From Phycisphaerae bacterium (GTDB lineage: Bacteria; Planctomycetota; Phycisphaerae; SM23-33), in NCBI GenBank assembly GCA_030745875.1, contig JASLNT010000050.1:3115-67114 (forward strand): a DNA stretch of 64,000 nucleotides, in the 5' to 3' direction. Positions 4,244 through 58,194 of the stretch are shown one piece after another. A program made the position numbers and the translations under genes. Numbering within the stretch: position 1 is the stretch's first letter; each line of letters opens with the position of its first letter. The notes beneath the pieces are model-generated. The model was given only the letters and a program-made list of their open reading frames with translations. It did not search any database and had not been told where the DNA came from.

Positions 4244-4452
4244 CACTGCTCCTGCTGAAAGACACAATCTATGGTGGTCCAGCCGGTTAGTTTCTCCTGT
4301 TGCTTGTGGTCTGTCAATCTTTTGCATGGTCTGTGGAGGACTGATTCCGGGCGGTTTCAGGCGTTTTCGGCTGTCAGGGCTCATGTTGCCGACGCCATCT
4401 GACCGATGAATTGCGTTACCGCCGCTAGCGGTCCCAAAATGAGGAATCAAGG

Positions 4453-4911
4453 ATGATGAACACGAACTACACTACTCAAGAAGCAACCGCCCGGCAGAGA
4501 ATACGACATTTCTTCACGCCCGACGAAGCCAATAGTTCGCTTGTGCTGGTCAGGCGGATAGTTGCCGACGTGGTGAAGCATTACGATAGATTGCTGGAAG
4601 TGCACGAGACTGTCGAGGCCCTGGAGGCCGCAGGGCGATTCGGTCAGATTGAGGATGCTCGCGACGAACTGGTTCTGACCGCCGACAGAATCCGCATATG
4701 CCTCGAAGAGATCGAAGATGTCGGGGTCGAGCTCTGCGATTGGGAATTGGGAATAGTTGACTTCCCCGCCATGATCGACGGGCGAGAAGTTCGACTGTGC
4801 TGGCGGTCCGACGAATCGCACGTGACGCACTGGCACGAATTGGATTCGTGCCATCTGGGGCGCTATGAGATCGATACGCTCCGCAGCGCTCATGCGACGA
4901 CATCAGCGTGA
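4453..4911 (+). CDS. DUF2203 family protein
   Basis: FTPDEANSSLVLVRRIV...GVELCDWELGIVDFPAMIDGREVRLCWRSDESHVTHWHE matches my memory of the DUF2203 pattern (FT.eEAn..LP...G..vKD...GLvDFP....g.ev.LCW..gE..i..WH). SD AGGAATCAAGG lies upstream. Confidence 0.7.
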   Translation: MMNTNYTTQEATARQRIRHFFTPDEANSSLVLVRRIVADVVKHYDRLLEVHETVEALEAAGRFGQIEDARDELVLTADRIRICLEEIEDVGVELCDWELGIVDFPAMIDGREVRLCWRSDESHVTHWHELDSCHLGRYEIDTLRSAHATTSA

Positions 4912-5034: not shown

Positions 5035-5062
5035 TTGATCCGTTCCGAACGTCAAATATACT
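5035..5062 (+). promoter_or_regulatory. sigma70-like promoter candidate (TTGATC-N16-TATACT) upstream of the giant-protein operon
   Basis: -35 at 5035-5040, -10 at 5057-5062, about 90 nt before ATG 5155. Confidence 0.3.
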
Positions 5063-5154: not shown

Positions 5155-8100
5155 ATGATCAAACGCCTGGCGATTACGGGACAATTCCTTACGATAGCGG
5201 CGGTGATGATCGTTTGCGTCACCGGCGCTCACGGACAGGCCACAAGGCCCGGACCGGAAAAAGTCTACATCCCATACGAGAAACTGAAAGATGTATTCGA
5301 ATCCGAAAAGCAGGGCGTCTTCCTTCCGTATGCGGACTTTCAGCGACTGTGGTCCGCCGCCCGCGGGGCGCCAGCTGGGGCTGTCGAATCACCACTGGGA
5401 TACCTGATCTCAACGGCCCGTTTCAGCGGGAAGATCAGCGGTAAGCTGGCGGAGATGAATCTGCTGCTCACCGTTGATATCATGAACGACAAGTGGACGG
5501 AAGTGCCCATCGCACTCGGGCAGGTCGCTGTCGCCGGGACATCATTCAAGACCGCTCCCGACGCCAAGGCCAAACCGCTGCTTCGCGTCGTCAACGGAAA
5601 GTACCGTCTGCTGGTCAAGGGCAAGGGGCGCTGGGTGGTGAGCATCGATTTCGTCAGGCAGCTTGTAACCAAACCCGGGCAAAACGTACTTGAATACCAG
5701 ATGCCCGCCGCGGCGATCAGCACGCTTGAACTGCTGATACCCGAGGAGAATATGAAGGTTGACGTCGAGCCGATGCTGGCGGCCGCAACCAGCCAGGTGA
5801 CCGCGCCCGACAAGACCAAGTCGACCAGGCTCAAGGCGTTTCTCGGATCCGCCGATAAAGTCAAGCTGAGTTGGCGTCCGAGAACGCAGGCCGCAGCGGG
5901 CCTGGCGCCGGTGGTTATCTGCAGCCAATTGCAGCATATCAACGTAGCCGAAGCGCTCATCACCTACGACGTGAAGTTCAACTACGATATCCGTCGCAGA
6001 GGCGTTGACAGTTTCTCGATACAACTGCCCGCGAAGTTCCGCGTGACCGCCGTTGACGGCGCGAACATCAGCAAGTGGGACATCGTGGCCCCCGCCAAAG
6101 CCGGCGCCGCGGCGCCCGCAGTTCAGGAATTGAACGTTAAGCTGTATTCCGAAGCGAAGGGCCCATATTCGCTCACTGTGAAGATGGAGCGTTTCCTCAA
6201 GGACGCTACGCTCACCCAGACGCTGACTCCGATAGTGACCCACCGCGTCCTGCGTCGCACGGGTTTGATAGCGATCACGCATTCGTCCAGGCGGTCGGTG
6301 GAGGTCGCCAACGTCAACAAGGAGCTTGTGCGCGTCGATGTCGGTCGCCTGCCGGCGAACCTGAAATCCCGCCCAGGCGTGACGGCGTATCGATTTACGT
6401 CGGCGGGGTACGGCGCCGATGTCGAGATCGCCACCGTTGCCCCGCGGGCGTCCGTGACGCAGCTATGGGCTCTGGGAGTCAAGAAAGACAACCTGCGCCT
6501 CTACGGGCGGTTGCAGTATTCGGTTGACAGGGCGGGGATATTCTCGGTTTCGATGAAGCTTCCCGAACCGTGGGAGATAACCTCGCTTGGACCGGCGAGC
6601 ATAGTCCACGATTACGAACTTGCGGGCAAGGGCGCCGACCGTACGGTGAACATCACGCTTAAGCGAGAGCTTAGCGGGGCCTTCGCACTGGATCTGGCGG
6701 CCCGGACCTCACGCGACGCTCCCGACGGGGCGGTCAAGTTCACTCTACCCCAACCTGACCCGAAGAACCTGCACAACTACAGCGGGCGGCTGATTCTCCA
6801 CCTGGCCGATTCGCTCCTGGCGGAGGTTTCAGGGCTCGATCAGCTTCAGTCCGTACCCGTCCGCTCGGCTTACCAGATGATGCGGGGCTCGCAAGTGAGC
6901 GCGGTTATGAGCGGGATGTCGCCCGCGATGGCGTTTGAATTCCGCGCCGTTGACAGCGCCAAGGCCGCCGGGGCGTCGTTCAAGACCAGCGTAAAGCCCG
7001 CCCAGGTGTCGGCGATTGTTCATCGCCTGGTGGATATTCAGGATGGATCAGTTCAGCACGAAGCGGTGGTTGCTTATAACGTTCGCTACGCGCCGGTCGA
7101 TACGTTCTACGTGAAAATGCCAGCCGCTCTGGCTGATGCGGGAGTTGACATATCCGGCGCGAACATTAAGGAGAAACCGCTCCTTCCGCCCGATCAGCAT
7201 CCTAAAATGGACACCGCCGAATCCAAGAAGGCCGACGACGCCAAAGACGCTCCGGATATCAAGTGGGCCTGCTACAAGGTCGTTCTGCAGTCTCCGGTTT
7301 CCGGGGAGTATCGCCTGCATGTAACGTGGCGTAAGAGTTACCAGGTCGGCGGCGATGACGGTCCGGCTAGGATTGATGTGCCCCAGGTACTGGCGGCGGG
7401 CGAATTGTCCGACCAGAGCGGTTACATCGCCGTCAAGAAAGCCGCAACCCTCGCCGTCGGAAAGGGCGAGATGAAAGATCTGGTGTTTGGCGATCCGAGC
7501 AGTGCTGCGGATCTTCCCTGGGCTCCGCACCGACGCAATGCGATAATAGCGTTGCGTCACAGCCTGGCGAAATACGAGTTGACTCTGCCCGTGCGGATGC
7601 AGAAAGAAGCTGACGTCTACACCACAATTGCAAATGCTGTGATTGTCGAGCAGGTGCTCGCACGGGACGGCACGCTGAACGGCAGGATGATATGTCTGTT
7701 GTCGACCAGCCGGGGCGACCGCCTCAGGGTGACCATGCCCACCGGAGCCAAAGTCTATCCGTTCATGCTTAACGGGCGTGAGGTGGCGGTTGAATCCCCT
7801 TCTCCGGATGTGCGGATCGTTCAGCTTCCGCATTCGGCTGGGCAGGTCGCCCGGAGCGTGCTTGAGATCACCTATGGGCTCGACGCGGACAGCAGTGCGA
7901 TCAACAGGAAACTGCCCGCCCCGGTGCTTTCGGATGAAGTGCCCGTGCAGAGAACTTTTTGGCGGGTATACGCGCCAGAAGATCATGTTGTGTTGGGCTA
8001 CGATCGCAACTTTGCGATCGACGGCGCCAGCCATATTGACAGTCTGTTCAACAGCGTAGCCACCGGGCACCAGCGGCAACTCGGTAAGTTCCCCGCCCAG

Positions 8101-8520
8101 GGACGTCTGTGGCGTTTCGCACGGCAGGGCGCCGTGGGCGAGTTCTCGATGACGTTGATGAAGCGAGAAATGTTTGTTGGGATTCTATGGGTCGTGATTA
8201 TCCTGCCCGGGGTCGTTCTTCTCAAAGTGCGCGGGTTTACGCGTGCGATTGTTGCGCTGGCGGCGATTACGGGGGCGGCGATTGTTTACCAGTTCAACCC
8301 TTTGCTGGTGAAAAACGCAGCCAGATTCGGCGTTTTTGCGGGTGTGATTGTCCTGTTGCTCTGGTTGGCGCATTGGGTGTTCTTCCGCCTATTGCGAAAA
8401 CGCAAGGCTTCCCTGCCGCCGCCCAGGCCCTTGAGCCCCGAGCCCATCGTAGAGTCCGTCGAAGCAGTCGAACCCATCGAGCAGAGCAGCGAAGAAGGGG
8501 GCGAAAATGAAAACGACTGA
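5155..8520 (+). CDS. giant envelope protein, paralogue unit 1 (signal peptide, ~1000-aa ectodomain, 3 C-terminal TM helices, acidic tail); family unknown
   Basis: 1121-aa ORF. Signal peptide ...CVTGAHGQ. Opening motif KVYIPYEKL...GVFLPYADFQRLW. C-terminal hydrophobic helices (FVGILWVVIILPGVVLL, IVALAAITGAAIVY, FGVFAGVIVLLLWLAHWVFF) followed by an E/S/P-rich tail. It is paralogous to the next two ORFs. Confidence 0.85.
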   Translation: MIKRLAITGQFLTIAAVMIVCVTGAHGQATRPGPEKVYIPYEKLKDVFESEKQGVFLPYADFQRLWSAARGAPAGAVESPLGYLISTARFSGKISGKLAEMNLLLTVDIMNDKWTEVPIALGQVAVAGTSFKTAPDAKAKPLLRVVNGKYRLLVKGKGRWVVSIDFVRQLVTKPGQNVLEYQMPAAAISTLELLIPEENMKVDVEPMLAAATSQVTAPDKTKSTRLKAFLGSADKVKLSWRPRTQAAAGLAPVVICSQLQHINVAEALITYDVKFNYDIRRRGVDSFSIQLPAKFRVTAVDGANISKWDIVAPAKAGAAAPAVQELNVKLYSEAKGPYSLTVKMERFLKDATLTQTLTPIVTHRVLRRTGLIAITHSSRRSVEVANVNKELVRVDVGRLPANLKSRPGVTAYRFTSAGYGADVEIATVAPRASVTQLWALGVKKDNLRLYGRLQYSVDRAGIFSVSMKLPEPWEITSLGPASIVHDYELAGKGADRTVNITLKRELSGAFALDLAARTSRDAPDGAVKFTLPQPDPKNLHNYSGRLILHLADSLLAEVSGLDQLQSVPVRSAYQMMRGSQVSAVMSGMSPAMAFEFRAVDSAKAAGASFKTSVKPAQVSAIVHRLVDIQDGSVQHEAVVAYNVRYAPVDTFYVKMPAALADAGVDISGANIKEKPLLPPDQHPKMDTAESKKADDAKDAPDIKWACYKVVLQSPVSGEYRLHVTWRKSYQVGGDDGPARIDVPQVLAAGELSDQSGYIAVKKAATLAVGKGEMKDLVFGDPSSAADLPWAPHRRNAIIALRHSLAKYELTLPVRMQKEADVYTTIANAVIVEQVLARDGTLNGRMICLLSTSRGDRLRVTMPTGAKVYPFMLNGREVAVESPSPDVRIVQLPHSAGQVARSVLEITYGLDADSSAINRKLPAPVLSDEVPVQRTFWRVYAPEDHVVLGYDRNFAIDGASHIDSLFNSVATGHQRQLGKFPAQGRLWRFARQGAVGEFSMTLMKREMFVGILWVVIILPGVVLLKVRGFTRAIVALAAITGAAIVYQFNPLLVKNAARFGVFAGVIVLLLWLAHWVFFRLLRKRKASLPPPRPLSPEPIVESVEAVEPIEQSSEEGGENEND

Positions 8521-11500
8521 ATACAACACGGATAACAGCGGTTTGGTTTTGCGGAGTCTTCTGGTGCTGGCGGTCCTGGGGTGCGCCTTGCAGTGCGCCT
8601 TCGGAGCCGACGAGGTCGCCGACGCGCCCAAGATCTACGTGCCGTACAAGGACGTTGCGGCCGTAGTTTCAAAAACCGATCGCGCGGTTCTTATGGACCG
8701 CGCCGAATTCAACAAGCTCCTGGCGGCTGCGAAAGCGGCGAGCACAAAGGCCAAACTCACCGACAGCGCTCCGAAACTGGGGCAGATCACGCGTGGAGAT
8801 TATACCGCCGCGGTTAACGGTGAGAACCTGTCGTTGAAGGGCGATCTGGTCATAGAATCGCTCAACACCGAGCCTGTGGTCGTGGAACTGCCGTTCGGCA
8901 GGGTCGGTTTGACCGAGATATTGCTGGACGGAAAGGCCGCGCCCGCGAATTACAACACGCGAGGGCGTCTGGTGCTGATAGTCACCGGGCGAGGCGTTCA
9001 CAAGCTCACGCTGGTCGGTTCGGTGAAGCTGACGGAACTGTCGAGCGGCGGGATGCAGTTTAGCATGGTTCTTCCCACCGCAGTAGCCGGAGCGATGAAA
9101 CTCCAACTGCCCGGAGACCAGGAAGCACACGCCAACGTGCCGGTTGCCGCCACCAAGTACGACAAACAAGGCGATCGCACAATCGTCGACCTGACGCTTG
9201 GCGGATATGGTTCGCTGAGCGTAGCCCTGCTCGGAAATGGGCGGCAGGAAGATCGTAAGGCGATTCTGCTGGGCGAGTCGGCGACCACAGTAGCTCTCAC
9301 GCCGACCGGTCAGACAATGGATTGTCTCTATACTGTCCAGGTCCTCAGGAGAGGTCTGCGCGAACTGGTGTTCAGCCTCGATCCGAACTGGACAATTACG
9401 GACGTTTCGTGTCCGAGTCTGGTGCAGTGGTCCGTTGTTACTCCCGATGGAAAGGGCTCCAAGGAACTGACAGTTCGTCTGCGAAGCGCAACGCGCGGTA
9501 CGCGAGCGCTGCATATCAGGGCGTCGGCGGCTATGGGTGAGATGTCCTGGTCGAGCCCGGCGGTTTCGCTCGTCGGAGCCGGATACCAGAGGGGCTATGT
9601 GCTGGTCGATCCGGGCGAGCAACTGGCTGTGCGCGCCGAGAAACTCATCAGCGCCAGACGCCAGGACATACGAGGCGTGTCTGGAATCGCCGGTATGACG
9701 GGCTCTTCGGGCAGGCTCTACTTCCACTGGGGCGACAAGTGGTCGGTTGGGCTGCAGCTGGCCCAGATCGAGTTGCAGACCCACAGCAAGGACAAGCAGA
9801 TGTTCGTTATTTCGCCGAAGGAGTTGTCTGTGCATTTTGAGGCCGAGGTCACAGCCGTCGGGCGGGAAATGTTCGCGCTGGATTTCATCCTTCCAGGCGA
9901 GAATAGCGGGTGGGACGTTAGCAGTGTCACCGTTAACGGGTCAAAGAAGGGCTTTGAATATCGCACCGCCGCCCAGGGCGCCGGGCGTGTATTGAAACTT
10001 GAGTTAGCCCGTCCGATCGCACCTGAAGCGGTTGCGAAGGTTAACGTGTTGCTTCGACGCGTACCCGAGAAATGGAATTGGTCTTCACGAGGCGGTTCTG
10101 AGAGGGGACCCGTTGTTCGCAAAGTCGCCTTACCGTTGATTCGCTGCGCGGCTGAGAAGTGTTCGGGCCTGGCGGCGGTGGCGGTTGCAGGAGATCTCGA
10201 TGCGGAGGTTTCCACTGCGGCGGCGGAGCTTAAAGGCGTTACGGTGGGTAAGATGGCTCCGCTGGGCCTGGGGCGCAACGTCCGGGCGGCGTATACGTAT
10301 GAAACGGCGCCCAAAGGCGTGCTGGACGTGTCGGTAAGCCGACCGGAACCTCGAATCGCCGCCAATGCCGCCGCGCTGGTCTCGGTGAATCCCTCGGGTG
10401 TTTCGGGGCGATTCGCACTGACCTACAACGTAACGCGCGTAGGGACCAGAACCCTGTATATCCTGGCGGATAAGTCGCTTGGCAGGAAGCTCACTATCGT
10501 TACGCCCGGGCGCCAACTGGCGTCGCGAAGTATCGTAACGCCTGGCGCAGACACACTGGAGTTGCCCAAGAGCGTTAGCGACGCTTATAACCTGTGGCAG
10601 TTGAAACTTGACGCACAGGCTCGGGGCGGTTTGCTGGTAAAGGTCAGTTATGAGCAGGCCCTGCCCGAGGGCGAGTTTTCGGTTGCTATGGTGCGGCCGG
10701 CGGGTGCGGAGCGATCGACAGAAGTGCTCGCCATCGAAGCCACCGAGGAATTGGCGGTTAAGGTTTCGGCACGCCAGGCAAGCGATGTCGACATAAGCGA
10801 TCTGCCTCCTCTCCCGGCTCCGGCTAGAAGGGTGCTCGGGGCGTTTCGTCCGACAGACAACATGCGCGGCGCCGGACCGCTGAGCGAGATCAGCCTGACG
10901 ACCGCGGTTCACGAAAACTACATTATTCCCACCGCTCTGGTCACCGAAGCAAACCTTCGCACCGCTATAGGAGCCGATGGTTCTCAGCAGACCCGGGCGA
11001 GCCTTAAGGTGGTTAACGCGGGCTTGCAGTTCCTCACGATCAAGCTCCCGGAGCGCAGCCGACTGCTTTCGGTTCGCGTGGGCAACCAGCAAGCGAAGCT
11101 CAAACACGATTCCGCCGGTAATTACCAGGTTTCCGTGCCGCAGGGGCGCAAGCCTTTTGCTGTGGCGATGGTCTACGCCACTCCGCCCGGCGCGGAGAAG
11201 ATTCGTCTGAGCGATCTGAAGCTGATTCCCGTAGAGTTGCCCGGTCTGCATATCAACACAGCCAGGTGGACTGTTATTCCTCCATCGGGATTCTCAATAA
11301 CGTCACACGATTCGGACATGTCCCCGGATTATCCGGAGGCTCTGGCTGTCGCCAGCCCCGCAATTGTCGAGCTAGCCAACGCCGCCTCTGATTCCGCTCT
11401 CGGGAAAGGTCGCAAATCGCAGTACTACTCTGCAAGCCGTGACGAAGCTTCTCGCGATAAGGGCGAAAGCGGAGCCGATGCGATTGATCCCGGCGTGATG

Positions 11501-11668
11501 GAGGCTACGGAGGGCGCCGGGGCCGCTCCCCCCCCCCGATTCGATCGGGCGTACGGTGCAGCCTACGACTGTCGATACACCTCGACCGAGAACCCGGCCT
11601 GCAACTCCGAAGAAGCCAGTTTTCCCGGCAGGGACGAAAACGCAGGGGCGTCACACGCTGCCTGTTGA
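8507..11668 (+). CDS. giant envelope protein, paralogue unit 2; the C-terminal end as drawn is probably frame-shifted
   Basis: ATG 8507 overlaps the unit-1 stop by 14 nt, with AAGGGGG SD upstream. Signal peptide LLVLAVLGCALQCAFGA. Motif KIYVPYKDV...AEFNKLL. The last ~45 aa after the C10 run (RFDRAYGAAYDCRYTSTENPAC...) look non-native, and the expected TM module lies in the next frame. Confidence 0.75.
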   Translation: MKTTEYNTDNSGLVLRSLLVLAVLGCALQCAFGADEVADAPKIYVPYKDVAAVVSKTDRAVLMDRAEFNKLLAAAKAASTKAKLTDSAPKLGQITRGDYTAAVNGENLSLKGDLVIESLNTEPVVVELPFGRVGLTEILLDGKAAPANYNTRGRLVLIVTGRGVHKLTLVGSVKLTELSSGGMQFSMVLPTAVAGAMKLQLPGDQEAHANVPVAATKYDKQGDRTIVDLTLGGYGSLSVALLGNGRQEDRKAILLGESATTVALTPTGQTMDCLYTVQVLRRGLRELVFSLDPNWTITDVSCPSLVQWSVVTPDGKGSKELTVRLRSATRGTRALHIRASAAMGEMSWSSPAVSLVGAGYQRGYVLVDPGEQLAVRAEKLISARRQDIRGVSGIAGMTGSSGRLYFHWGDKWSVGLQLAQIELQTHSKDKQMFVISPKELSVHFEAEVTAVGREMFALDFILPGENSGWDVSSVTVNGSKKGFEYRTAAQGAGRVLKLELARPIAPEAVAKVNVLLRRVPEKWNWSSRGGSERGPVVRKVALPLIRCAAEKCSGLAAVAVAGDLDAEVSTAAAELKGVTVGKMAPLGLGRNVRAAYTYETAPKGVLDVSVSRPEPRIAANAAALVSVNPSGVSGRFALTYNVTRVGTRTLYILADKSLGRKLTIVTPGRQLASRSIVTPGADTLELPKSVSDAYNLWQLKLDAQARGGLLVKVSYEQALPEGEFSVAMVRPAGAERSTEVLAIEATEELAVKVSARQASDVDISDLPPLPAPARRVLGAFRPTDNMRGAGPLSEISLTTAVHENYIIPTALVTEANLRTAIGADGSQQTRASLKVVNAGLQFLTIKLPERSRLLSVRVGNQQAKLKHDSAGNYQVSVPQGRKPFAVAMVYATPPGAEKIRLSDLKLIPVELPGLHINTARWTVIPPSGFSITSHDSDMSPDYPEALAVASPAIVELANAASDSALGKGRKSQYYSASRDEASRDKGESGADAIDPGVMEATEGAGAAPPPRFDRAYGAAYDCRYTSTENPACNSEEASFPGRDENAGASHAAC
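11528..11537. repeat. C10 homopolymer at the unit-2/unit-3 reading-frame junction
   Basis: Counted directly: ...GGCCGCT CCCCCCCCCC GATTCG... This is the longest homopolymer I noticed in the window. Confidence 0.95.
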
Positions 11669-14600
11669 CTTGGTGGAGTCTTCGTCGGGCGGTCGAGAAA
11701 TTGTTTTCAGCGGATTGGGAAATCCGCAACTGACTATCTCACTGACGTCAAAATCCATCGGGAAAGGGCATTTGTGGATCGGATTGGCGATTGTGGGGAT
11801 CGCAGGTCTGTGTTTGTTGAATGCCGCCGTAGGCCGCAAGGTTGTATTTATCATTCTTGCCGGCAGTGCTGCGACACTGATGACGATCTGGGTTCCGTCG
11901 CTGGCGCGGGGCGCCAACGGTGCGTTCTACGCCGTCTGCCTGTTGGCGTTGTTCTATCCGGTGGTCGGTCTGTATCGCCTGATCGCCAACTCCCTGACGG
12001 GCGGCAGGTATTATGTTCGCGGGGCGGTTTTGTTGTTGGCGGCGACGGTGCTGTTTGCGACGGGCCGATCGGCTGGGGCGGCGACTAAGGGTAAGGTTTC
12101 CCGACCCGCGCCGTCGAAGACGCCTCCGGTGGTTATTCCGTACGACGGAGACCCCAGCAAGGCCGATACCGCGGGCAAAGTCCTCCTGCCATATAAGCGT
12201 TTTGTGAAGTTGTGGAATCTGTCACATCCCGACCGCAAGATCCAGTCGCCCGCCAGCGGGCTCGTTCCGAACGAGAAGGTGTCGCTGGCCGGAGTTACCT
12301 ACAGTGCTGTGGTGGCTGACAAAAAGATGAACATTACGCTTCAGGCGGAGCTAACCGCTCGGGGCAAGGGGTGGGCTGTCCTGCCGATGGGAATATCCGG
12401 TATGGCGGTGACCACCGCTACACTGGACGGTAAGCCCGCACGCCTGCAGGTTGGGCCTAGGGGGATGGTGCTGGCGGTCCAGGCTCCGGTGTCGGGCAAG
12501 TTCGTGCTGACCGGAGTGACGACGCCAAAATACATCGGCAGGAAGGGCAGGGTGAATCTTTCCCTGCCGTTGCTTCCGCTGGCGGTGATGAAAGTGCGCC
12601 TCGACGATGCGGACTTCGAACTGGAGACTCCCGGTATGGACGGTGTGCTCACCAGCAGCAAAACCGATGCGGGCGTCGTATGGACCGTGCCCCTCGGTTC
12701 GGCGCGAAAGGTCGCGTTGAATTGGTCGCCCAAAGCCGGTACGGGCGCCGCCGACCGGACGCTTTCGGTGTCTGCGACTCACGATATCGGCGTGTTCCAC
12801 TGGGCGTTGGTGGGTGTGAGCAAGATGGCGTACAGCTTCTCCGCCGGTGAGAACGACCGGTTCGAGATGCTTATCCCCGAAGGCGTGTCGATTACGAAGA
12901 TCTCCGGCGCCAACCTTCGCGATCATCGCATAGCTGGCGTTAAAACGCTGGAAGGTCGCAAGTTCAGTGTGGTTGATATTCGCCTGTATCGTCCGGCGAG
13001 CAAGGGATACAGCTTGACAGCCCACTGGATTGGCGATTTGCCCGCGATGGGGCGCCCCGAAAGGCTCTGGTTGCCTCGCGCCGGACGTGTTGGTCGTGAG
13101 GCCGGTTTTGTCCACCTGCACACCGCAGGGGGAATGGTTCTGAAAGTCACGGACGTTAAAGGCGGCAGGCGAAGAGATATCGTAGGTTCCGGACGGTCAT
13201 CCAAGAGCGCCGTTGGGACGGTTCTGGCCGATTCGACCGCGGTGGTTGCTTCCTATCAGTGGCCTTATAGAGATTTTGCGCTGAAGGTTCAGATCTCGCG
13301 ACGCCAGGCGCTGGCGAAGGTTGGTTTGGATCAGCTTGTGCGGGTAAGTTCCGATCGCGTTCAACTGCTCGCTCAGGCGACAATTACTCCCGCAGGGGAG
13401 GGCGGTAAGGGCGGTTCAAGCAGGTTCTTCGGCGCGACGTTCAACCTGCCGAATGATTACGAACTGCTGAGCGTTGTCGGTCCTGACGTTGAGGGATGGC
13501 ACGTGCAGAAATCCTCCGACGGTAAATCGCCTCGCAGACTGCACGTTGGTTTTCGGACTGCGGTGGTGAGATCGCACGTGGCGATAGTGCTTGTCCGCGA
13601 CGATGCAAAGATCGACCGCCTGGTCGTTCCTACAGTCCAAGCTGTCGACCCCGACGGGCGAGTGATAGACGATCAGTTTGGGCGTCTGGCCGTGCAGGTG
13701 GCGCCCGCTCTGGATGCGCATACGGTTTCCAGCAAGCAGTTGACCTCGATCGCGCCGTCGGCTGCCGCGGGTTGGCTCGATAAATCCCAGGTCCGAGCTG
13801 TCCAGTTCGCCTATCGTTACAGGACGCCTGCAATAGCCCTGGAGCTGGCCGTACGAAAACGCCCCACCAAGGTGCGCGTTGAGATAGTCGCCGGCGTATC
13901 GGTGCATCAGTCATCGGCGGATTACACTTATCGCCTGCGATATGCTGTTTCCGGATCGCCGATCGATCGGGTGAGTTTCACCCTTCCCGAGAAGTACGCG
14001 AAGTTGGTCGCCGTGACATCGCGCTATTTGCGGTCGGTGTCATCGGCAGGGGCTCCGGACGGCCGGAAAAAGTGGACTGTCGCACTGACCAACGAACTGA
14101 CCGGTGAGTTTGACATACTGGTGAATTTCGCCCTTCCGATAGACGCATCCACGCACAAATTGCCCGTACCCCGCGTGGTGACCCCCGCGGGCGACGGATA
14201 CCGGGCGGTGCTGGCGATTCAGAATACTTCCAGGCACGAGCTTGCGTTTACTCCGTCCAAGTCAATGAGCCCGCTTCCGGTTACGGCGCAAAAGCGCGTG
14301 CTTGGCTCCAGGGTCAGCAAATCGCTCCAGTACGTTTACCAGGCGTTCGAAGACAACTGGTCGGCGGAGTTGAAGGTCACCCCCGCCAAAGCCGCCAGCC
14401 GCATCCAGGCGATTGTCGATCTCATGGAGTTGAAGACCGTGCTTGACAAGTCCGGTCAGTGTCGCTACCAGGTCGATCTGTCGCTGCATAACCGCAGCGA
14501 ACAGTTCCTCAAAGTTAAGCTTCCAGCCGGACTAAAGTTGTGGTCGGCGCGTGTTGCCGGTCAGGCCGTCAAGCCCGTACTCCCAGCCGGTAAGTCCGGA

Positions 14601-16115
14601 GGGGACTTGGTGCACGTTCCGCTGGTGAAGACTTCGCGAGGCGGTTTGCCTTACAACATCAGGCTTTATTTGGCGGGAAAGAGCGCCCAGGGAATCTCAG
14701 GCGTATCGAGAATCAGCGCCCCGAGCATTCGCATAGTCGGCATCCCGGTCAAGCAGACCACCTGGTCGCTCAGGTTGCCCAAGGGCTTCCGGTATATCAG
14801 GCCCGAAGGCAACATGTCTCCCATCGCCGGTACGGCCGAGAGACTCAGCATCGGTATCGACGTGAAGCTCTCGCAACTCAAGAGGATGTCGAAGTCGTAC
14901 ATGGGCGCCTATAACACCGAGGCCCAGGAACAAGTGTTTCAGAAGAATTGGCGTGAGTCGAATGACGATCTGACCCGCGAGATAGCTGCGAACCAAAACT
15001 TTCTGGATCACAACCGCGATGATCTTGGTGAGAAGGCTTATCAGCGCCTGACCGGCAAGCTCCAGCAGGCCCAGGCCGGTCAGTACGGTCTGGTGCAGGG
15101 TTGGAGCAACGCGGGGTCCGCACAGATCGACGCCAGCGGTAACGTTAACCACTTCCTGAACGGCGGCACGACTAACGCCGGCGTGCTTGAAGTAGAACGC
15201 AACAACACGCTCGTGGTGATTCCGGAGTTTGTCCGGAATGCGGGCAATCTGCAGTTAACAAACATCCGCAACGAATTCGCCGGAAACGCCGCCAAACTCG
15301 CCTCTCGACGCAAGGGCGTAGCGAAGGGCGGTAAAGTCCGGAAGAAGCAACCGACTCCCGGTTATTCAAAGGGCAAGTTCCTGGCGTTGGAGGATGATGA
15401 CAAGAGCAATGAATTGAAGAAAGTGGCCGAAACTCTCGCTGGTGAACAGGAACGTCTCCTGGTCATGCGACAGGACAGGCTTCAAAAGCAGGTCAAGGAT
15501 CTGGGCGATAACCGTCTGGAGCGGTACTTTGGACGGTTGAACATCGCCCAGGGCGATCAGCAGCAAGGACAGGTCGCAGGTAACCTGGAGTTGAACGTTT
15601 CAGGCCGGAGCGTGAATGCTCCAGGCGATTGGGTGACCACATCCGCCAATGGCGCCATTATAGCAGACCCGAACGGACGAGTAGTCACCAACGGCGGTGT
15701 GATTGGAACCAGAAATGTTACTGGCGGGATTGTACTGGGCAATGACGTGACTGTCACAGGCAGCACCGGTGCTGGAACCATCTCGACCGTTGACGGGACA
15801 TTTATCTACGACGTGGGAGGCCCTGGCGGCGGCGGTGGTCGCGGTGAGGGTGACGGAGACAGGTTCGGCGCCGGTTTGGCGGCTGCGGGCGGGATGTTCT
15901 CACTACCGGTGGAACTGCCTGACAGCGGCGGGGAGGTGCTCGATTTCGCCTATCCGGGCGGTGATCCGGAAGTAAGCGTCCTGGCCGTGCCGGCGGACGT
16001 TTGGCGGGCGGGGCGGTCGACGATAGCGATACTGATCGTATTGGCGGTTGTCGGATTGGTCGCGCTGGTCATTCGCAGGATAACAGGAAGATCGCGCCGC
16101 GCTGCGGCGGCGTGA
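11556..16115 (+). CDS. giant envelope protein, paralogue unit 3; its first ~170 aa look like the missing C-terminal TM module of unit 2
   Basis: 1519-aa ORF called from GTG 11556; the frame is open back to 11499. Residues ~30-170 (TLPVDLVESSSGGREIVFSG... plus four hydrophobic helices) resemble the C-terminal modules of units 1 and 3. The last helix (GAVLLLAATVLFATGRSAGA) looks like a signal peptide and precedes VVIPYDGDP...KVLLPYKRFVKLW. The C-terminus has a Gly-rich segment, one TM helix and an Arg-rich tail. Confidence 0.8.
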   Translation: MQPTTVDTPRPRTRPATPKKPVFPAGTKTQGRHTLPVDLVESSSGGREIVFSGLGNPQLTISLTSKSIGKGHLWIGLAIVGIAGLCLLNAAVGRKVVFIILAGSAATLMTIWVPSLARGANGAFYAVCLLALFYPVVGLYRLIANSLTGGRYYVRGAVLLLAATVLFATGRSAGAATKGKVSRPAPSKTPPVVIPYDGDPSKADTAGKVLLPYKRFVKLWNLSHPDRKIQSPASGLVPNEKVSLAGVTYSAVVADKKMNITLQAELTARGKGWAVLPMGISGMAVTTATLDGKPARLQVGPRGMVLAVQAPVSGKFVLTGVTTPKYIGRKGRVNLSLPLLPLAVMKVRLDDADFELETPGMDGVLTSSKTDAGVVWTVPLGSARKVALNWSPKAGTGAADRTLSVSATHDIGVFHWALVGVSKMAYSFSAGENDRFEMLIPEGVSITKISGANLRDHRIAGVKTLEGRKFSVVDIRLYRPASKGYSLTAHWIGDLPAMGRPERLWLPRAGRVGREAGFVHLHTAGGMVLKVTDVKGGRRRDIVGSGRSSKSAVGTVLADSTAVVASYQWPYRDFALKVQISRRQALAKVGLDQLVRVSSDRVQLLAQATITPAGEGGKGGSSRFFGATFNLPNDYELLSVVGPDVEGWHVQKSSDGKSPRRLHVGFRTAVVRSHVAIVLVRDDAKIDRLVVPTVQAVDPDGRVIDDQFGRLAVQVAPALDAHTVSSKQLTSIAPSAAAGWLDKSQVRAVQFAYRYRTPAIALELAVRKRPTKVRVEIVAGVSVHQSSADYTYRLRYAVSGSPIDRVSFTLPEKYAKLVAVTSRYLRSVSSAGAPDGRKKWTVALTNELTGEFDILVNFALPIDASTHKLPVPRVVTPAGDGYRAVLAIQNTSRHELAFTPSKSMSPLPVTAQKRVLGSRVSKSLQYVYQAFEDNWSAELKVTPAKAASRIQAIVDLMELKTVLDKSGQCRYQVDLSLHNRSEQFLKVKLPAGLKLWSARVAGQAVKPVLPAGKSGGDLVHVPLVKTSRGGLPYNIRLYLAGKSAQGISGVSRISAPSIRIVGIPVKQTTWSLRLPKGFRYIRPEGNMSPIAGTAERLSIGIDVKLSQLKRMSKSYMGAYNTEAQEQVFQKNWRESNDDLTREIAANQNFLDHNRDDLGEKAYQRLTGKLQQAQAGQYGLVQGWSNAGSAQIDASGNVNHFLNGGTTNAGVLEVERNNTLVVIPEFVRNAGNLQLTNIRNEFAGNAAKLASRRKGVAKGGKVRKKQPTPGYSKGKFLALEDDDKSNELKKVAETLAGEQERLLVMRQDRLQKQVKDLGDNRLERYFGRLNIAQGDQQQGQVAGNLELNVSGRSVNAPGDWVTTSANGAIIADPNGRVVTNGGVIGTRNVTGGIVLGNDVTVTGSTGAGTISTVDGTFIYDVGGPGGGGGRGEGDGDRFGAGLAAAGGMFSLPVELPDSGGEVLDFAYPGGDPEVSVLAVPADVWRAGRSTIAILIVLAVVGLVALVIRRITGRSRRAAAA

Positions 16116-16139: not shown

Positions 16140-16946
16140 TTACGGTTCCTGCGGCGGTATCGAGTTGTGCCTGTCCATCGCCAGCTTTCCGCGGATCGAT
16201 TCGAGTCTCTGGGACTGCTTTCCGACCCGGCTGACCAGCAGCGACATCGGTTGGCGCCGGTGATCGCGGAAGGTGATGATTATCCGTCCGAACCCGAACA
16301 GCCGTTCGAGGAAGTCGCCGGTGTCCACTCGCGTGGAGTACTCTTCGCGGGAGATCTGCTCGCCGGTTTCGGTCGGACCGGTCTGGATGTTCATGTAGTT
16401 CGGCGTGATAGCAACGTAGTAGAACAGTCCTCGCAGATACGATATCATCACCGCGACTGAAAACAGGCCCGCGATCAGCAGGTAACCCATCCAATCAATG
16501 GCGATGCCGATGTGGCGGAATGACCGTACGAACGGTTCGACCCATCCCAGGAACAGCAGCCACAGGAATATCGCCAAAACACACAGTATCAGGATCAGCA
16601 GTACTTTTATGCTGACGACGTATTCGTCGACCAGGAAGTTTATCGTGAATATCGCAAACCATATTCCACCGATTACCGGGACGGCTCCGTCGGTGAGAAC
16701 GTCCATCTGTACGAGCCCGACAATCAGGCTCGCAATCAGCGACGCGAAGATGGTCGGTACGTAGAGGACCTTGCGGCTCCAGTCGAATGTGACCAGCCAC
16801 TCGTTTATGTCCGGATCCTCGCGTATCTGCTTGCTCACGCGGAGGCGCGTGCGGATCGTCTTTTTCAGCAGGATGAATGTCAGGATTCCCCCGCCCAGGA
16901 CGATAAACGGAACGGCGAAAACGATAATTTTCGATATTGACCACAT
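16140..16946 (-). CDS. multi-pass membrane protein with C-terminal bPH_2 (YdbS/YdbT-like PH) domain
   Basis: Several hydrophobic helices. The C-terminal ...DFLERLFGFGRIIITFRDH... resembles the bacterial PH-domain family. ATG 16946 is preceded by AAAGGTGA; the track start was GTG 16955. Confidence 0.6.
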   Translation of the reverse strand: MWSISKIIVFAVPFIVLGGGILTFILLKKTIRTRLRVSKQIREDPDINEWLVTFDWSRKVLYVPTIFASLIASLIVGLVQMDVLTDGAVPVIGGIWFAIFTINFLVDEYVVSIKVLLILILCVLAIFLWLLFLGWVEPFVRSFRHIGIAIDWMGYLLIAGLFSVAVMISYLRGLFYYVAITPNYMNIQTGPTETGEQISREEYSTRVDTGDFLERLFGFGRIIITFRDHRRQPMSLLVSRVGKQSQRLESIRGKLAMDRHNSIPPQEP

Positions 16947-17042
16947 CGGCGTCACCTTTCACTATTTAAGCGTTAGGACTATTACCCGCAATCGATGACT
17001 ATGATTCTTGACTTCCGAGCTCAGTTGTCAAGTGTCAAGCGC

Positions 17043-18243: not shown

Positions 18244-20763
18244 TTATTTTCCGTTATTGGGCGCCGAGCCTGTGCTGAAGCGGAAGCGACGCATGGTTTG
18301 CTTGTCGGATGGTGAGTCCAGGGATGTGCTATAGGTGATCTCCCACGTGCGTGATTCGGGGTTGTAGTCGCACTGGGCGAAGCGTGTCGACCGCCATTTT
18401 CCGCCCTCCGACACCTCCAGTTTCGGGTTCCTGTAGTCTGTAAGTCCGGAAATTGTCATCGGAACATAACCCAATCCTCCGGTGACCGTGAATTCCGCCT
18501 GATTGTCGCGCGCCTGGACCATTGTGGGGCGAGTGCGCACGAGCTTCCCGACTGCGACTTTCACCGACAGATCGTTGCCGACGGCTTCTCGGCGTATCAT
18601 CCGCCACGTATCGGCTCCGGCGCCCAGGGCGGTGCGCAAATTCTTGTTCGGACCGTAGTAATCCTTCGCAAATTGCGGGACCGCGACATGCTCGATCACG
18701 GCGCGAACGTAGTCTCCCGGAAGCAACTCCTTGACTCCGGGCGGGGGGATTATGTCAATCAGTGACGTGTTGCGTCCGCGCACCCTGGCTCCGCGTTCCG
18801 CGGCCCATGGTTCGGCGGGCTTTCCGCCCAGTTTCGCCTCCCAACTGCGGATGATAATCCCGCGGTTGGCCCAGGCGCCCCGGTCGTCCTTGCGCCTGAC
18901 GGCTTGGTGCATCGATATCCAGGCGGCGCGCCCTTCGAGTTTCACTGGTTTGGTCTTGTACACGCCTCCGCCCCAACTCGTGTTCCATTCGGCGGCTAGT
19001 CCGGTTTTGTCGCCGCGTGCGAACTTTTTCTCACCGGTGTAGCTGTAGTTGTCTCCCCCGCACTGGAAGAACACCATGCGTTGGAACTTCGCCGGTTTGC
19101 GGACATCGTAGTTGAACTGGTAGACGCCGCGCGTGATGTCGTCGGTGCGGTACAGGCTTGTCGTGTATTGCAGGTCGATCTTGTCGTCGTGCGTTCGTCC
19201 TGCGTAGGTTACTTCGGTCAGGACGGGGCAGTTGCGGCGATGAAGTGTTCTCATACGCGAATGTCGCTGTTTGATTCCCCCCGTGTCGTAGTAGACCAGG
19301 AAGTCGGCCCCGCCGACGTTGTGCGTCCATCCCCACTTGCGTTTGGGCTTGTCGCCCATTGCATAGACCATCAGCGGGCGCGTGTCGAGTACGGACCCTC
19401 CGCGCTGACCGTGGTCGGGTTCGAAGCAGATCGACTCGCCCCATGATCCTATCGCCGCTTCCTCCCACAATTGATTGCCTCCCCATCCGACCAGGCACAA
19501 CTGTGCGTGAGAAACCGCCGGAACTCCGCCGAAATGCGCGCCCACGCTGACATACTCCATCTTCAGGGTCGTCCGGGCCGGGACTGTCAGCATGGTAAGT
19601 CCGCGAAACCACGGACCCTTGTGTCGTCCGGGTTTTCCGGTGTGCCAGTTCTTGGACAGTTGAACCGGCAGGCCTGTGGGATTTCCGTCGGCGTCCCGGA
19701 TAAACGCAGATACGCCCGTGATGCCGATAGTGTGCTTCTTGCCAAAACAAAGCCTGACGATTCGTGGTCGGTCGGCGGTGTTGGTTAGCGTAAGGGCTAC
19801 TCGTTCGACGCGGTTGTTCCGTCCGTCGGAGGAGCGGTCGGTCTGATCGTTTCGCAAACTCACGTAATGCCATCCGTACTCGGGATCGTAGGCGACGTTA
19901 AGATTGGCTTTGGTGGGGTGGGTCTGGGCGGCTGTCGCTTTCACAGGCGTCTGCTCGTCCGTTGCGGCGTTCCTGACCAGCGCAGACACCCCGGCGCCGC
20001 TGGGATAAAGAACCACTCCGATCTTCTTCTCCGTTCCCGCGGTCCAGCCGCCGATCTGCAGGCGAAACGAGCACGTTTTTCCGTGCGCCCCGCGTCCGAC
20101 GGCCGATGGATTCGTCGGAAACAGCACCACGCCGCAGTCGCCCGGACCGGCCAGGGAAAATACTTTTCCGCCCGATAACCTGCCTCCGTGTTTCAACGTG
20201 ACTGTCATTTCCAGCGCGCCGTCGGTGATGTTTGCTCCCGGCGTGACGCGGAGAAGCAGCAGCAATCTGTCCGGCCAGGCTGCGATCTCCATTTCGCTAT
20301 TGGTTCTCGGCGCTCCCTTGTCCCACGCTACGTTAGTCAGGCAGCGTCGCTGGAAGAAACGTCCGGACTCGATCAACTGGCAGTCGGCGGTGTCCACCCG
20401 CTTGCGTTCCGCGATGCGAAACTGGCGCCCGTCGGCGTGAAGCGTGCACTCAAGGTCAATGTCGCTCTTGTCGAATAACTTCCGATTACTCATGACCAGC
20501 GCCTTGGACATTGCGGGCGCGTGGGCCAGCGGCGTAACGTGGGTCAGATTCATCTTCCCGTAGTCAAACGACAGTGCGTAGCGGCTGGTCTGGATATTGA
20601 ATACCTTCGCCTTATCGCCCAGACCGTTGGCCCACCACATGTAAGTGTAGTCTGACGCGTTAGCCAGCACGGATCGCCTGATGTCGTCTCCGTCGCACGG
20701 ACAGGCCGCCGAACCTATAACGATAATCGCCAGGAACCCGACCGGGAGTATTCTCGTTCTCAC
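18244..20763 (-). CDS. large secreted protein of unknown family
   Basis: The long ORF has coding-like composition throughout. GTG 20763 is preceded by GAGAGGTG and gives MRTRILPVGFLAIIVIGSAA, which looks like a signal peptide. I recognise no catalytic motif. Confidence 0.7.
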   Translation of the reverse strand: MRTRILPVGFLAIIVIGSAACPCDGDDIRRSVLANASDYTYMWWANGLGDKAKVFNIQTSRYALSFDYGKMNLTHVTPLAHAPAMSKALVMSNRKLFDKSDIDLECTLHADGRQFRIAERKRVDTADCQLIESGRFFQRRCLTNVAWDKGAPRTNSEMEIAAWPDRLLLLLRVTPGANITDGALEMTVTLKHGGRLSGGKVFSLAGPGDCGVVLFPTNPSAVGRGAHGKTCSFRLQIGGWTAGTEKKIGVVLYPSGAGVSALVRNAATDEQTPVKATAAQTHPTKANLNVAYDPEYGWHYVSLRNDQTDRSSDGRNNRVERVALTLTNTADRPRIVRLCFGKKHTIGITGVSAFIRDADGNPTGLPVQLSKNWHTGKPGRHKGPWFRGLTMLTVPARTTLKMEYVSVGAHFGGVPAVSHAQLCLVGWGGNQLWEEAAIGSWGESICFEPDHGQRGGSVLDTRPLMVYAMGDKPKRKWGWTHNVGGADFLVYYDTGGIKQRHSRMRTLHRRNCPVLTEVTYAGRTHDDKIDLQYTTSLYRTDDITRGVYQFNYDVRKPAKFQRMVFFQCGGDNYSYTGEKKFARGDKTGLAAEWNTSWGGGVYKTKPVKLEGRAAWISMHQAVRRKDDRGAWANRGIIIRSWEAKLGGKPAEPWAAERGARVRGRNTSLIDIIPPPGVKELLPGDYVRAVIEHVAVPQFAKDYYGPNKNLRTALGAGADTWRMIRREAVGNDLSVKVAVGKLVRTRPTMVQARDNQAEFTVTGGLGYVPMTISGLTDYRNPKLEVSEGGKWRSTRFAQCDYNPESRTWEITYSTSLDSPSDKQTMRRFRFSTGSAPNNGK

Positions 20764-20958
20764 TGCAAACACCTCTCTGGCAAGACTATTGCCCAATGGC
20801 GCGATTGGCAAGGGCTAACGTGTAAGTGTATCCGAAGCGGGGATGGTTACAGTGTGTTGTAGTGGTTTTTGCGATAGCGTGAATGTAGGATTGTCAGGAA
20901 CATAATGGTTTGGTCGGGCGTCCAAGTCTGCGTGTCGGATGGACCCGGGAGCAGTCAA

Positions 20959-34743: not shown

Positions 34744-34803
34744 AATCTTCCTCGCTCTACTGTACACAATAACGAAATCTGAACAAGAGAACCCGAGTTT
34801 GCT

Positions 34804-40962: not shown

Positions 40963-41161
40963 TATCTTGCCCTTTTGTGCATAATGACACGTCTTGCAGG
41001 CCTTGCATGACGCCATGCGTCTCAAGCGGGCAACCGCCGGCCCGTTGATCTGCGAGTGACGAGGTTTTTGTTATTGTGTTATTGGTTCATTCAGATGTTC
41101 GTGCGATTCATAATCGAAGACGACAATTCGATTGCGATCAAGAAACAGTGAGGACCCGCCC

Positions 41162-58119: not shown

Positions 58120-58194
58120 GGGACCGTAGCTCAATTTGGTTAGAGCACCGGACTGTCGATCCGGAGGTTGCGGGTTCGAATCCCGTCGGTCTCG
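58120..58194 (+). tRNA. tRNA-Asp (anticodon GUC)
   Basis: Folded by hand. Acceptor GGGACCG/CGGTCTC (one G-U pair). D-arm GTAGCTCAATTTGGTTAGAGCAC. Anticodon stem CCGGA/TCCGG with loop CTGTCGA, giving anticodon GTC. T-arm GCGGG-TTCGAAT-CCCGT. Discriminator G. CCA is not encoded. Confidence 0.93.

Follow-up and report, generated by a model that had tools for sequence, protein, structure and literature searches.

Large hypothetical envelope proteins are common in Planctomycetota. Among the closest described systems, ribophorin I/Ost1 and PIG-T are non-catalytic scaffolding subunits, and BatD and DUF4139/MuiA proteins follow a general plan of signal peptide, beta-sandwich domains and C-terminal anchor. 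NOMO-type multi-Ig spacers are chains of beta-sandwich domains with a C-terminal membrane anchor. The FbcH cytochrome b/c1 precursor of Bradyrhizobium carries an internal signal peptide that is cleaved, giving two mature membrane proteins in fixed stoichiometry. The locus described here, at positions 5155-16115 on the plus strand of a 64-kb stretch of DNA (the window) from a Phycisphaerae-type planctomycete, holds two genes, A and B, whose products share the general plan of BatD and DUF4139/MuiA and are comparable to the NOMO-type spacers. The whole is best explained, with a probability of about 0.6, as a two-gene operon encoding three paralogous units, members of a family from Planctomycetota and Lentisphaerota that is still uncharacterised.

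As read, the locus contains three open reading frames (ORFs) on the plus strand: ORF1 (5155-8520, 1121 aa), ORF2 (8507-11668, 1053 aa) and ORF3 (11556-16115, 1519 aa, GTG start). ORF1 and ORF2 overlap by 14 nt, ORF2 and ORF3 by 113 nt, and the ATG of ORF2 sits within ...GAAAATGAAAACGACTGA / gaagggggcgaaaATGaaaacgacTGA. The ORFs, their overlaps and the position of this ATG agree with a preliminary description of the window, in which the ORFs were taken for three genes encoding three proteins. ORF1 is gene A. ORF2 and ORF3 are very probably the two halves of one gene, B (8507-16115, +), which encodes two fused units and a protein of 2535 aa after removal of one C from a run of ten (C10).

The gene structure was surveyed at 54 loci of species-representative genomes, of which 33 distinct loci extend far enough to be judged. 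All 33 have one ORF of 2450-2900 codons after A (~1100 aa); on the shorter contigs the frame is open to the contig end. Locus L001, whose A protein is 84% identical, has A and then one gene of 2513 aa, L002 has one gene of 2536 aa, and L059 shows the same A-then-B layout with a 4-nt overlap. With 14 nt here and 4 nt in L059, the tight coupling of A and B is borne out. Protein-database homologues of ORF3 measure 2400-2660 aa, the sole exception being the window's own 1447-aa gene call (P0121); a look-up of the window's own ORF3 product gave no record. Gene B is split only in this genome among ~34 loci. The relatives carry two genes and not three, the second being a natural two-unit fusion of ~2500 aa, and gene B stems from an ancient event in which two units were fused head to tail.

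The distribution of homology along the two frames points to the same structure. In tblastn, residues 2-953 of the 2513-aa L001 protein match the ORF2 frame (8573-11428) and residues 1003-2502 the ORF3 frame (11583-16079), so that the frame switch falls between 11428 and 11583. The frameshift is placed at 11528-11537 (+), a C10 run that no other homopolymer of the window equals in length; upstream of it is the last stop of the ORF3 frame, and downstream the stop of ORF2. In the ORF2 frame the run reads GCT CCC CCC CCC CGA and encodes Pro-Pro-Pro in a linker that is variable and probably disordered. Deletion of one C yields an uninterrupted ORF of 2535 aa, colinear with the proteins of L001, L003 and L005; the peptide across the C-tract of full-length B is then ...AAPPPDSIGRTVQ..., and residues 35-1161 of the repaired protein form a single profile domain across the junction. 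The C-terminal part of the profile (positions 967-1068) matches ORF3 residues 43-145, and the alignment of ORF1 with ORF3 begins only at ORF3 residue ~151. Residues 31-148 of ORF3 hold a strand module and three membrane helices, i.e., the C-terminal end of a unit. These elements (TLPVDLVESSSGGREIVFSG...) had been assigned to the second of three proteins; they belong to unit 2 but are encoded in the ORF3 frame. The real protein does not include the out-of-frame tail of ORF2 (RFDRAYGAAYDCRY..., 11538-11668, +). None of the relatives has anything corresponding to these last 44 residues, encoded beyond the C10 run; it is the ORF3 frame that carries the homology on. The 113-nt overlap, first read as a sign of coupled translation of ORF2 and ORF3, is the footprint of the frameshift.

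Two other readings of the split were considered. The split could be real and functional, giving A, a soluble periplasmic unit 2 (ORF2 without anchor) and a product of ORF3 (the unit-2 anchor plus unit 3) translated from the internal GTG or another start. The sequence as given does carry the frameshift, the source's gene caller made a 1447-aa product for ORF3 (P0121), and the window's two other long homopolymers, T8 at 29458 and G8 at 34590, leave the long ORFs around them (27839-30067 and 32326-34767) unbroken, which indicates that the assembly is not riddled with homopolymer errors. This reading is nevertheless quite unlikely, with 0 of ~34 related loci split, a tail of ORF2 beyond the run without homology, and a break located exactly in the window's only 10-nt homopolymer. 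The start of ORF3 also lacks a signal peptide and lies ~60-70 residues before a helix that needs its N-terminal side outside the membrane, an awkward topology. Alternatively, C10 could serve regulation and set how much full-length B is made, as a phase-variable switch working by slipped-strand mispairing or as a place where ribosomes shift by +1 or transcription slips. Its location in a non-conserved, probably disordered linker, where changes in length would be tolerated, is in favor of such a role, and ribosomes stall at consecutive prolines, which counts in the same direction. The shift needed is +1 on CCC-CCC-CCC-C, and tRNA-Pro reading CCC-C is a classic case of +1 slippage (PMC7577736), so a real frameshift could be leaky. 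A regulatory role is decidedly unlikely, however, as the C10 run is absent from the linker stretch shown of L001, L003 and L005, the three closest relatives examined, so that as a recoding signal it is not conserved. No stimulatory element was seen, although no search was aimed at one, and C-tract length variants did not turn up when metagenome contigs were scanned by pattern. Within the preferred reading of ORF2 and ORF3 as one interrupted gene, the frameshift stems either from a homopolymer miscalled in sequencing or assembly or from a recent real indel, possibly leaky via +1 slippage on CCC-C.

The three units are true paralogues built on one shared plan. BLASTP aligns ORF1 with ORF3 at E=2e-19 over ~1000 aa, ORF1 with ORF2 at E=2e-9, and ORF2 with ORF3 at E=4e-12. 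A profile made from distant A-type homologues only (at most 27% identity to ORF1; neither the window nor its close relatives contributed) finds ORF1 at 1e-232, ORF2 at 8e-95 and ORF3 at 2e-97. The paralogy proposed in the preliminary description is thereby significant in both kinds of search. The two motifs that it had singled out, an opening motif (the N-motif) and W-x-[VL]-x-x-P-x-G[FY], both lie on invariant or near-invariant alignment columns (Y38, P40, W66 and W936 in A; P195, Y196, W220, W1070, P1075 and G1077 in ORF3).

Gene A (5155-8520, +) encodes a single unit of 1121 aa and has hundreds of full-length homologues of ~1100 aa. A signal peptide was located by hydrophobicity scan at aa 1-27 (5155-5235), with predicted cleavage between ...VTGAHG and QA. 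It is followed by the N-motif (aa 36-66, 5260-5352), seen in the alignment as two h-h-h-P-Y boxes (h = hydrophobic) and beginning KVYIPY...GVFLPYADFQRLW. Across family members with 19-27% identity to A, Y38 and P40 never vary, and P58, Y59, L65 and W66 are at least 90% conserved. In A-type homologues a [IV]Y[IV]PY box stands 10-40 aa after a typical A-x-A site, so the motif marks the mature N-terminus of every unit. Five beta-sandwich modules, D1-D5 (aa 80-950, 5392-8004), were delimited with the secondary structure of an AlphaFold2 (AF2) model, hhalign and Foldseek. When a diverse alignment was cut in five and compared with hhalign, D2, D3 and D4 were found to be homologous modules of ~180 aa (probability 98.6-99.8%), with D1 and D5 more distant (D1-D5 85%, D3-D5 90%). 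The W-x-V-x-x-P motif (WRVYAPEDH, aa 936-944, 7960-7986), with an invariant W936 and a P941 conserved to at least 90%, is followed by a short linker that contains a single helix. A membrane-proximal beta-hairpin (aa 984-1003) and three transmembrane helices (aa 1004-1086; together 8104-8412) were identified from the AF2 model and the hydrophobicity scan, and the protein ends in a Pro/Glu-rich tail. The AF2 model of A has a mean predicted local distance difference test score (pLDDT) of 79 and a predicted template-modelling score (pTM) of 0.47, i.e., the model defines each domain well but not how the domains are placed relative to one another; the N-motif has a pLDDT below 50 in this monomer model. 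Residues 853-855 of A (7711-7719) read RGD, within a TSRGDRL strand of D5 that is near-invariant in the A subfamily. A functional RGD was rejected: units 2 and 3 read NAGLQF and NRSEQF at that place, and the triplet was taken as coincidental and probably structural.

Gene B starts with MKTTE..., which is common to its closest relatives, and a purine-rich stretch lies upstream of this start, at the 14-nt overlap with A. Its signal peptide (aa 1-33, 8507-8605, +; predicted cleavage between ...CAFG and AD) was recognized by hydrophobicity scan and from relatives. The N-motif of unit 2 (KIYVPY...AVLMDRAEFNKLL, 8630-8722) is conserved in the B consensus. The beta-sandwich ectodomain of unit 2 (8759-11332), with the motif WTVIPPSGF at 11267-11293, is covered by the profile match to ORF2 residues 35-942 (E=8e-95) and by BLASTP to units 1 and 3. 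After a linker of ~130 aa that holds the C-tract, the strand module (GRHTLPVDLVE...) and transmembrane helices 1-3 of unit 2 follow in the ORF3 frame (11646-11999). Residues G31, L35, P36 and V37 of this strand module are invariant (ORF3 numbering), and the helices at ORF3 residues 65-148 are confident in AF2 model 2, which covers ORF3 residues 1-1200.

Unit 3 opens with its own N-motif (VVIPYDGDP...KVLLPYKRFVKLWN, 12129-12218, +), in which P195, Y196, K208, Y213, L219, W220 and N221 are invariant. Five beta-sandwich modules (12273-14795), including WSLRLPKGF at 14763-14789, were recognized from AF2 model 2, Foldseek and the BLASTP match to A. They are followed by three long helices that only B has (ORF3 aa 1089-1194, 14820-15137; model 2 pLDDT ~84-88), with conserved N/Q/R positions, and by a partly conserved charged stretch, probably helical, which passes into a variable Gly-rich linker (15138-15893; alignment consensus and sequence). 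A strand module (MFSLPVELPDSGGEVLDFAYPGGD...) and a single C-terminal transmembrane helix complete the unit (15894-16073; alignment and hydrophobicity scan). In the strand module L1454 and F1464 are invariant, and S1449, L1450, P1451, V1452, P1455 and D1463 are at least 90% conserved. By hydrophobicity scan this last transmembrane helix lies at residues 2504-2522 of B, and an Arg-rich tail follows. More distant B proteins (P0132-P0180, C-terminal 100 residues) end in three transmembrane helices, like A, and the clade of the window appears to have lost two C-terminal transmembrane helices of B. Docking of the unit-3 N-motif on the unit-2 strand module was considered and dropped; both elements have low confidence in model 2, and the contact is unsupported.

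Between the two units, at 12003-12080 (+), lies a fourth, shorter hydrophobic segment of B that resembles a signal peptide (RYYVRGAVLLLAATVLFATGRSAGA, with predicted cleavage before A). The preliminary description had counted it as the signal peptide of a third protein; it lies inside a polypeptide. It consists of basic residues, a short hydrophobic core (~12-15 residues in the sequence of the window) and a small-x-small site. When 40 B proteins are aligned, the column at position -1 is A in 29, and the column two before it is A, T, V, G or S in 38; the -3/-1 rule holds at one aligned column in 32 of the 40, with flanks that vary freely. In model 2 the internal helix has a low pLDDT and stands outside the confident bundle of transmembrane helices 1-3. 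Three transmembrane helices precede the element, so it would run from cytoplasm to periplasm, as signal peptidase I requires. The features of a polyprotein processed by signal peptidase are thus present: basic n-region, short core, -3/-1 c-region and a predicted cytoplasmic N-terminal side. These sequence features suggest B as a polyprotein from which signal peptidase I would release unit 2, with four C-terminal helices, and unit 3; we give this proposal somewhat less than an even chance.

Protein family searches were run with Pfam at E up to 0.1 for the proteins of the window and at E up to 1 for 34 diverse members of the A/B family. Pfam had no family for ORF1-3 and none that was matched by more than one of the 34 members; BatD (PF13584), DUF4139, DUF4140, VIT, vWA, Ribophorin_I and alpha-2-macroglobulin (A2M) were all absent from the results. 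NCBIfam/TIGRFAM, including TIGR02231, gave no match for the proteins of the window. PADLOC gave one chance-level match only (E=0.0026, no stretch passing alone), and PHROGs none. Profiles from close and diverse alignments found nothing among the sequences of the PDB, or chance matches to transmembrane helices (E of 0.2 or higher). No description of the A/B family was found in the literature, and the preliminary statement that no named family fits agrees with all of these searches. At 50% identity the family has at least 5415 representatives at E up to 0.001, 1402 of them at E up to 1e-30, of A type (1100-1300 aa) and B type (2200-2700 aa). The named sources are Phycisphaerae, Sedimentisphaerales, other Planctomycetota and metagenome-assembled genomes (MAGs) of Lentisphaeria; single MAGs labelled Desulfobacterales or Opitutae also carry members.

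The flanking ORFs of 55 loci were clustered. Only A and B recur across the 55 loci, and the next clusters occur in at most five. A sigma-70-like promoter match (5035-5062, +; 9/12 positions) was found ~93 nt 5' of gene A, and a GC hairpin followed by a short T run, resembling a terminator, at the end of gene B (16095-16109, +). These sites bracket A and B; both come from a consensus scan and are weak evidence.

The fold was searched with Foldseek against the PDB, using two independently modelled units, and a viral structure library was added. For both models the top match is ribophorin I/Ost1 (E 2e-10 to 4e-10, probability 1.0, ~430 columns), with template-modelling scores (TM-scores) of 0.21-0.30 on the target. 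The legs of integrin alpha come next (E 1e-8 to 1e-9 over ~800 columns, TM-scores 0.13-0.18), and further matches are the VIT domain of ITIH1, PIG-T (E 3e-5) and the N-domains of LTA4 hydrolase (LTA4H) and IRAP. The local matches to VIT and M1 aminopeptidase domains have a probability of 1.0 over 200-270 columns (6fpy, 7zyf, 3fts), and proteins of inter-alpha-trypsin inhibitor (ITI) and M1-aminopeptidase type match in the viral library. What these models indicate is similarity of fold class; homology is unproven. Modelling and Foldseek, which the preliminary description had proposed as a check, thus gave a ribophorin I/Ost1-like fold and no characterised family by sequence. It had also named a BatD- or DUF4139-type match, or a lack of similarity among the units, as results that would count against it; no such match was found, and the units are similar.

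The ectodomains probably lie in the periplasm, with anchors in the cytoplasmic membrane: these anchors are predicted by the hydrophobicity scan and by both AF2 models, and the placement follows from topology rules. In the mechanism proposed, the internal signal peptide of B would be cut by signal peptidase I, giving two mature proteins at a fixed 1:1 ratio; the tight coupling of A and B would bring the units to roughly 1:1:1; and the three units would assemble into a non-catalytic periplasmic scaffold, like ribophorin I and PIG-T in membrane complexes. A scaffold function, proposed by analogy, is tentative, with the odds somewhat against it. That it would be non-catalytic fits the lack of any enzyme signature in A and B: C-x-E-Q, HExxH and Pfam domains are all missing. 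Three paralogous units at a fixed ratio suggest a pseudo-threefold hetero-assembly, and the hetero-oligomeric envelope assembly of the preliminary description may reasonably be supposed. The linker from D5 to the hairpin measures ~35, 130 and 400 aa in units 1, 2 and 3, and tethers so unequal argue against three equivalent rigid stalks. The invariant N-motif looks like an interaction element. A more specific picture, which we consider unlikely, is that A and the two released halves of B form a pseudo-threefold inner-membrane periplasmic machine specific to Planctomycetota and Lentisphaerota, with the double PY motif as docking element. Such a machine could be a determinant of envelope architecture (periplasm width, membrane invagination, anchoring of surface structures) or a ribophorin-like accessory of an unidentified membrane enzyme.

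Two alternatives to an uncharacterised periplasmic family were weighed. The function might be explained by a characterised envelope family, namely BatD, DUF4139/MuiA, VIT-vWA proteins or alpha-2-macroglobulin-like protease traps, which resemble A and B in a general way (signal peptide, beta-sandwich array, C-terminal anchor) and some of which recur among the Foldseek matches (ITIH1 VIT, A2M/C5/CD109, N-domains of M1 aminopeptidases). This is highly improbable given the Pfam and NCBIfam/TIGRFAM results and the matches to A2M/C5/CD109, which have low probability and TM-scores below 0.1; A and B have neither a thioester motif (C-x-E-Q) nor an HExxH/zinc motif. The neighbourhood also speaks against it. 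In loci with annotated flanks, no gene for BatA or BatB (vWA), BatC (TPR), MoxR, DUF58, another vWA protein or PBP1c adjoins the pair, the annotated flanks being unrelated metabolic genes, and no flanking cluster is found in more than five of the 55 loci. The proteins might instead be released or exposed at the surface, as adhesins or S-layer-type proteins, and not be anchored periplasmic proteins of the inner membrane. They are giants of repeated beta-sandwich domains, as in many adhesins, and weak Foldseek matches to a biofilm-associated protein, pilus proteins and DUF11 were recorded. Helical membrane anchors are, however, conserved at the C-terminus of every unit, near-identical tandem repetition is absent, and in the A/B family the Pfam scans gave no PEP-CTERM, type IX secretion system C-terminal (T9SS CTD), autotransporter or LPXTG domain; a surface location is therefore very unlikely.

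Several points weigh against the preferred explanation of A and B. On a 3.98-Mb contig of Lentisphaeria (L057), B has no A homologue within 10 kb upstream, and in a MAG labelled Desulfobacterales (L058) A occurs without B; an obligatory complex of A and B is therefore not universal, unless the partner is encoded elsewhere. An ORF of 1091 aa upstream of the Lentisphaeria B was examined as a candidate A and is not homologous. The conserved N-motif is unplaced in both monomer models. With pTM values of 0.40-0.47 for the two AF2 models, the geometry between domains is uncertain, and the scaffold role follows only from domain type and topology. The Foldseek TM-scores stay low (0.1-0.3), since a chain of five domains is being set against chains that are shorter or put together differently, and matches of beta-sandwiches are generic. 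Conservation of the A-x-A site could reflect other constraints. Finally, every source name is 'hypothetical protein', with no annotation for any member.

Upstream of A, a DUF2203 protein at 4453-4911 (+) was confirmed by Pfam (E=2.2e-27); an antisense ORF (4447-4893) covers this stretch, and the gene caller of L001 chose the minus strand there. Downstream, a 271-aa ORF (16140-16955, -) is conserved in four close loci only. The preliminary label of a PH-domain membrane protein for its product is not supported, as no Pfam or NCBIfam match was found at E up to 0.1. The DUF2203 gene, the gene of the 271-aa membrane protein and a radical-SAM gene are common only to the 2-4 closest relatives, against 55 loci for the pair, and the suspected linkage of the first two with A and B was abandoned: their recurrence is synteny by descent. 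The upstream Fe-S/NADH-oxidoreductase genes of one subclade were likewise considered as conserved partners and proved unrelated.

Searches of the window for Rfam families, tandem repeats and further paralogues gave nothing relevant to A or B; the only Rfam match is a single tRNA gene at 58120-58194 (+). A second giant ORF, at 44012-48643 (+, 1543 aa), has no Pfam match and no similarity to A or B, and closely follows, on its 3' side, a Peptidase_C25 (gingipain-like) protein that carries a CWB2 domain (41132-43501, +). Large ORFs of 855, 737 and 813 aa at 18244-20811, 30116-32329 and 32326-34767, all on the minus strand, also lack a significant Pfam family. A small protein with a PEP-CTERM sorting motif (1522-2157, +; E=5e-7) has a counterpart in L001 and implies an exosortase system somewhere in the genome.

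For this window the practical point is that the apparent third gene is the product of a frameshift at a homopolymer. The pair takes up ~11 kb per genome in a large, widespread and conserved family that has no Pfam or NCBIfam model. With its two genes, three units, 15 beta-sandwich modules and internal signal peptide, the corrected structure is something definite for annotation and experiment to start from. The family, itself undescribed, has an unusual arrangement, of which the polyprotein part has a little less than an even chance of being right. If both the processing and the three-unit assembly were true, A and B would be a new envelope component of a group with a debated cell plan, and B one of very few bacterial membrane polyproteins.

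Compared with known systems, A and B are closest in fold to ribophorin I/Ost1 and PIG-T, with which they share a signal peptide, a non-cytoplasmic beta-sandwich ectodomain and a C-terminal membrane helix. Those are eukaryotic proteins of the endoplasmic reticulum with two sandwich domains and one transmembrane helix, whereas A and B have five modules and one to three transmembrane helices per unit, in three units from two genes. The Ribophorin_I profile (PF04597) matched neither the proteins of the window nor the 34 diverse members, the profile search of PDB sequences did not find Ost1/RPN1, and the flanks of the 55 loci hold no transferase gene linked to the pair. The likeness to the VIT domain of inter-alpha-trypsin inhibitor heavy chains and to the N-domain of M1 aminopeptidases is one of local fold only; A and B differ in having no VIT or VIT_2 match (PF08487/PF13757), no vWA or peptidase domain and no HExxH. 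From BatD and DUF4139/MuiA they are set apart by the absence of Pfam and NCBIfam matches and of bat, MoxR or vWA neighbours. Integrin alpha legs are likewise chains of beta-sandwiches ending in a C-terminal membrane anchor, but A and B have no beta-propeller head, and the likeness is that of a generic domain string. FbcH is unrelated to B, in which cleavage is proposed only from the conservation of the A-x-A site; as an internal signal peptide that is cut to release two membrane proteins, it offers a precedent for the processing proposed here.

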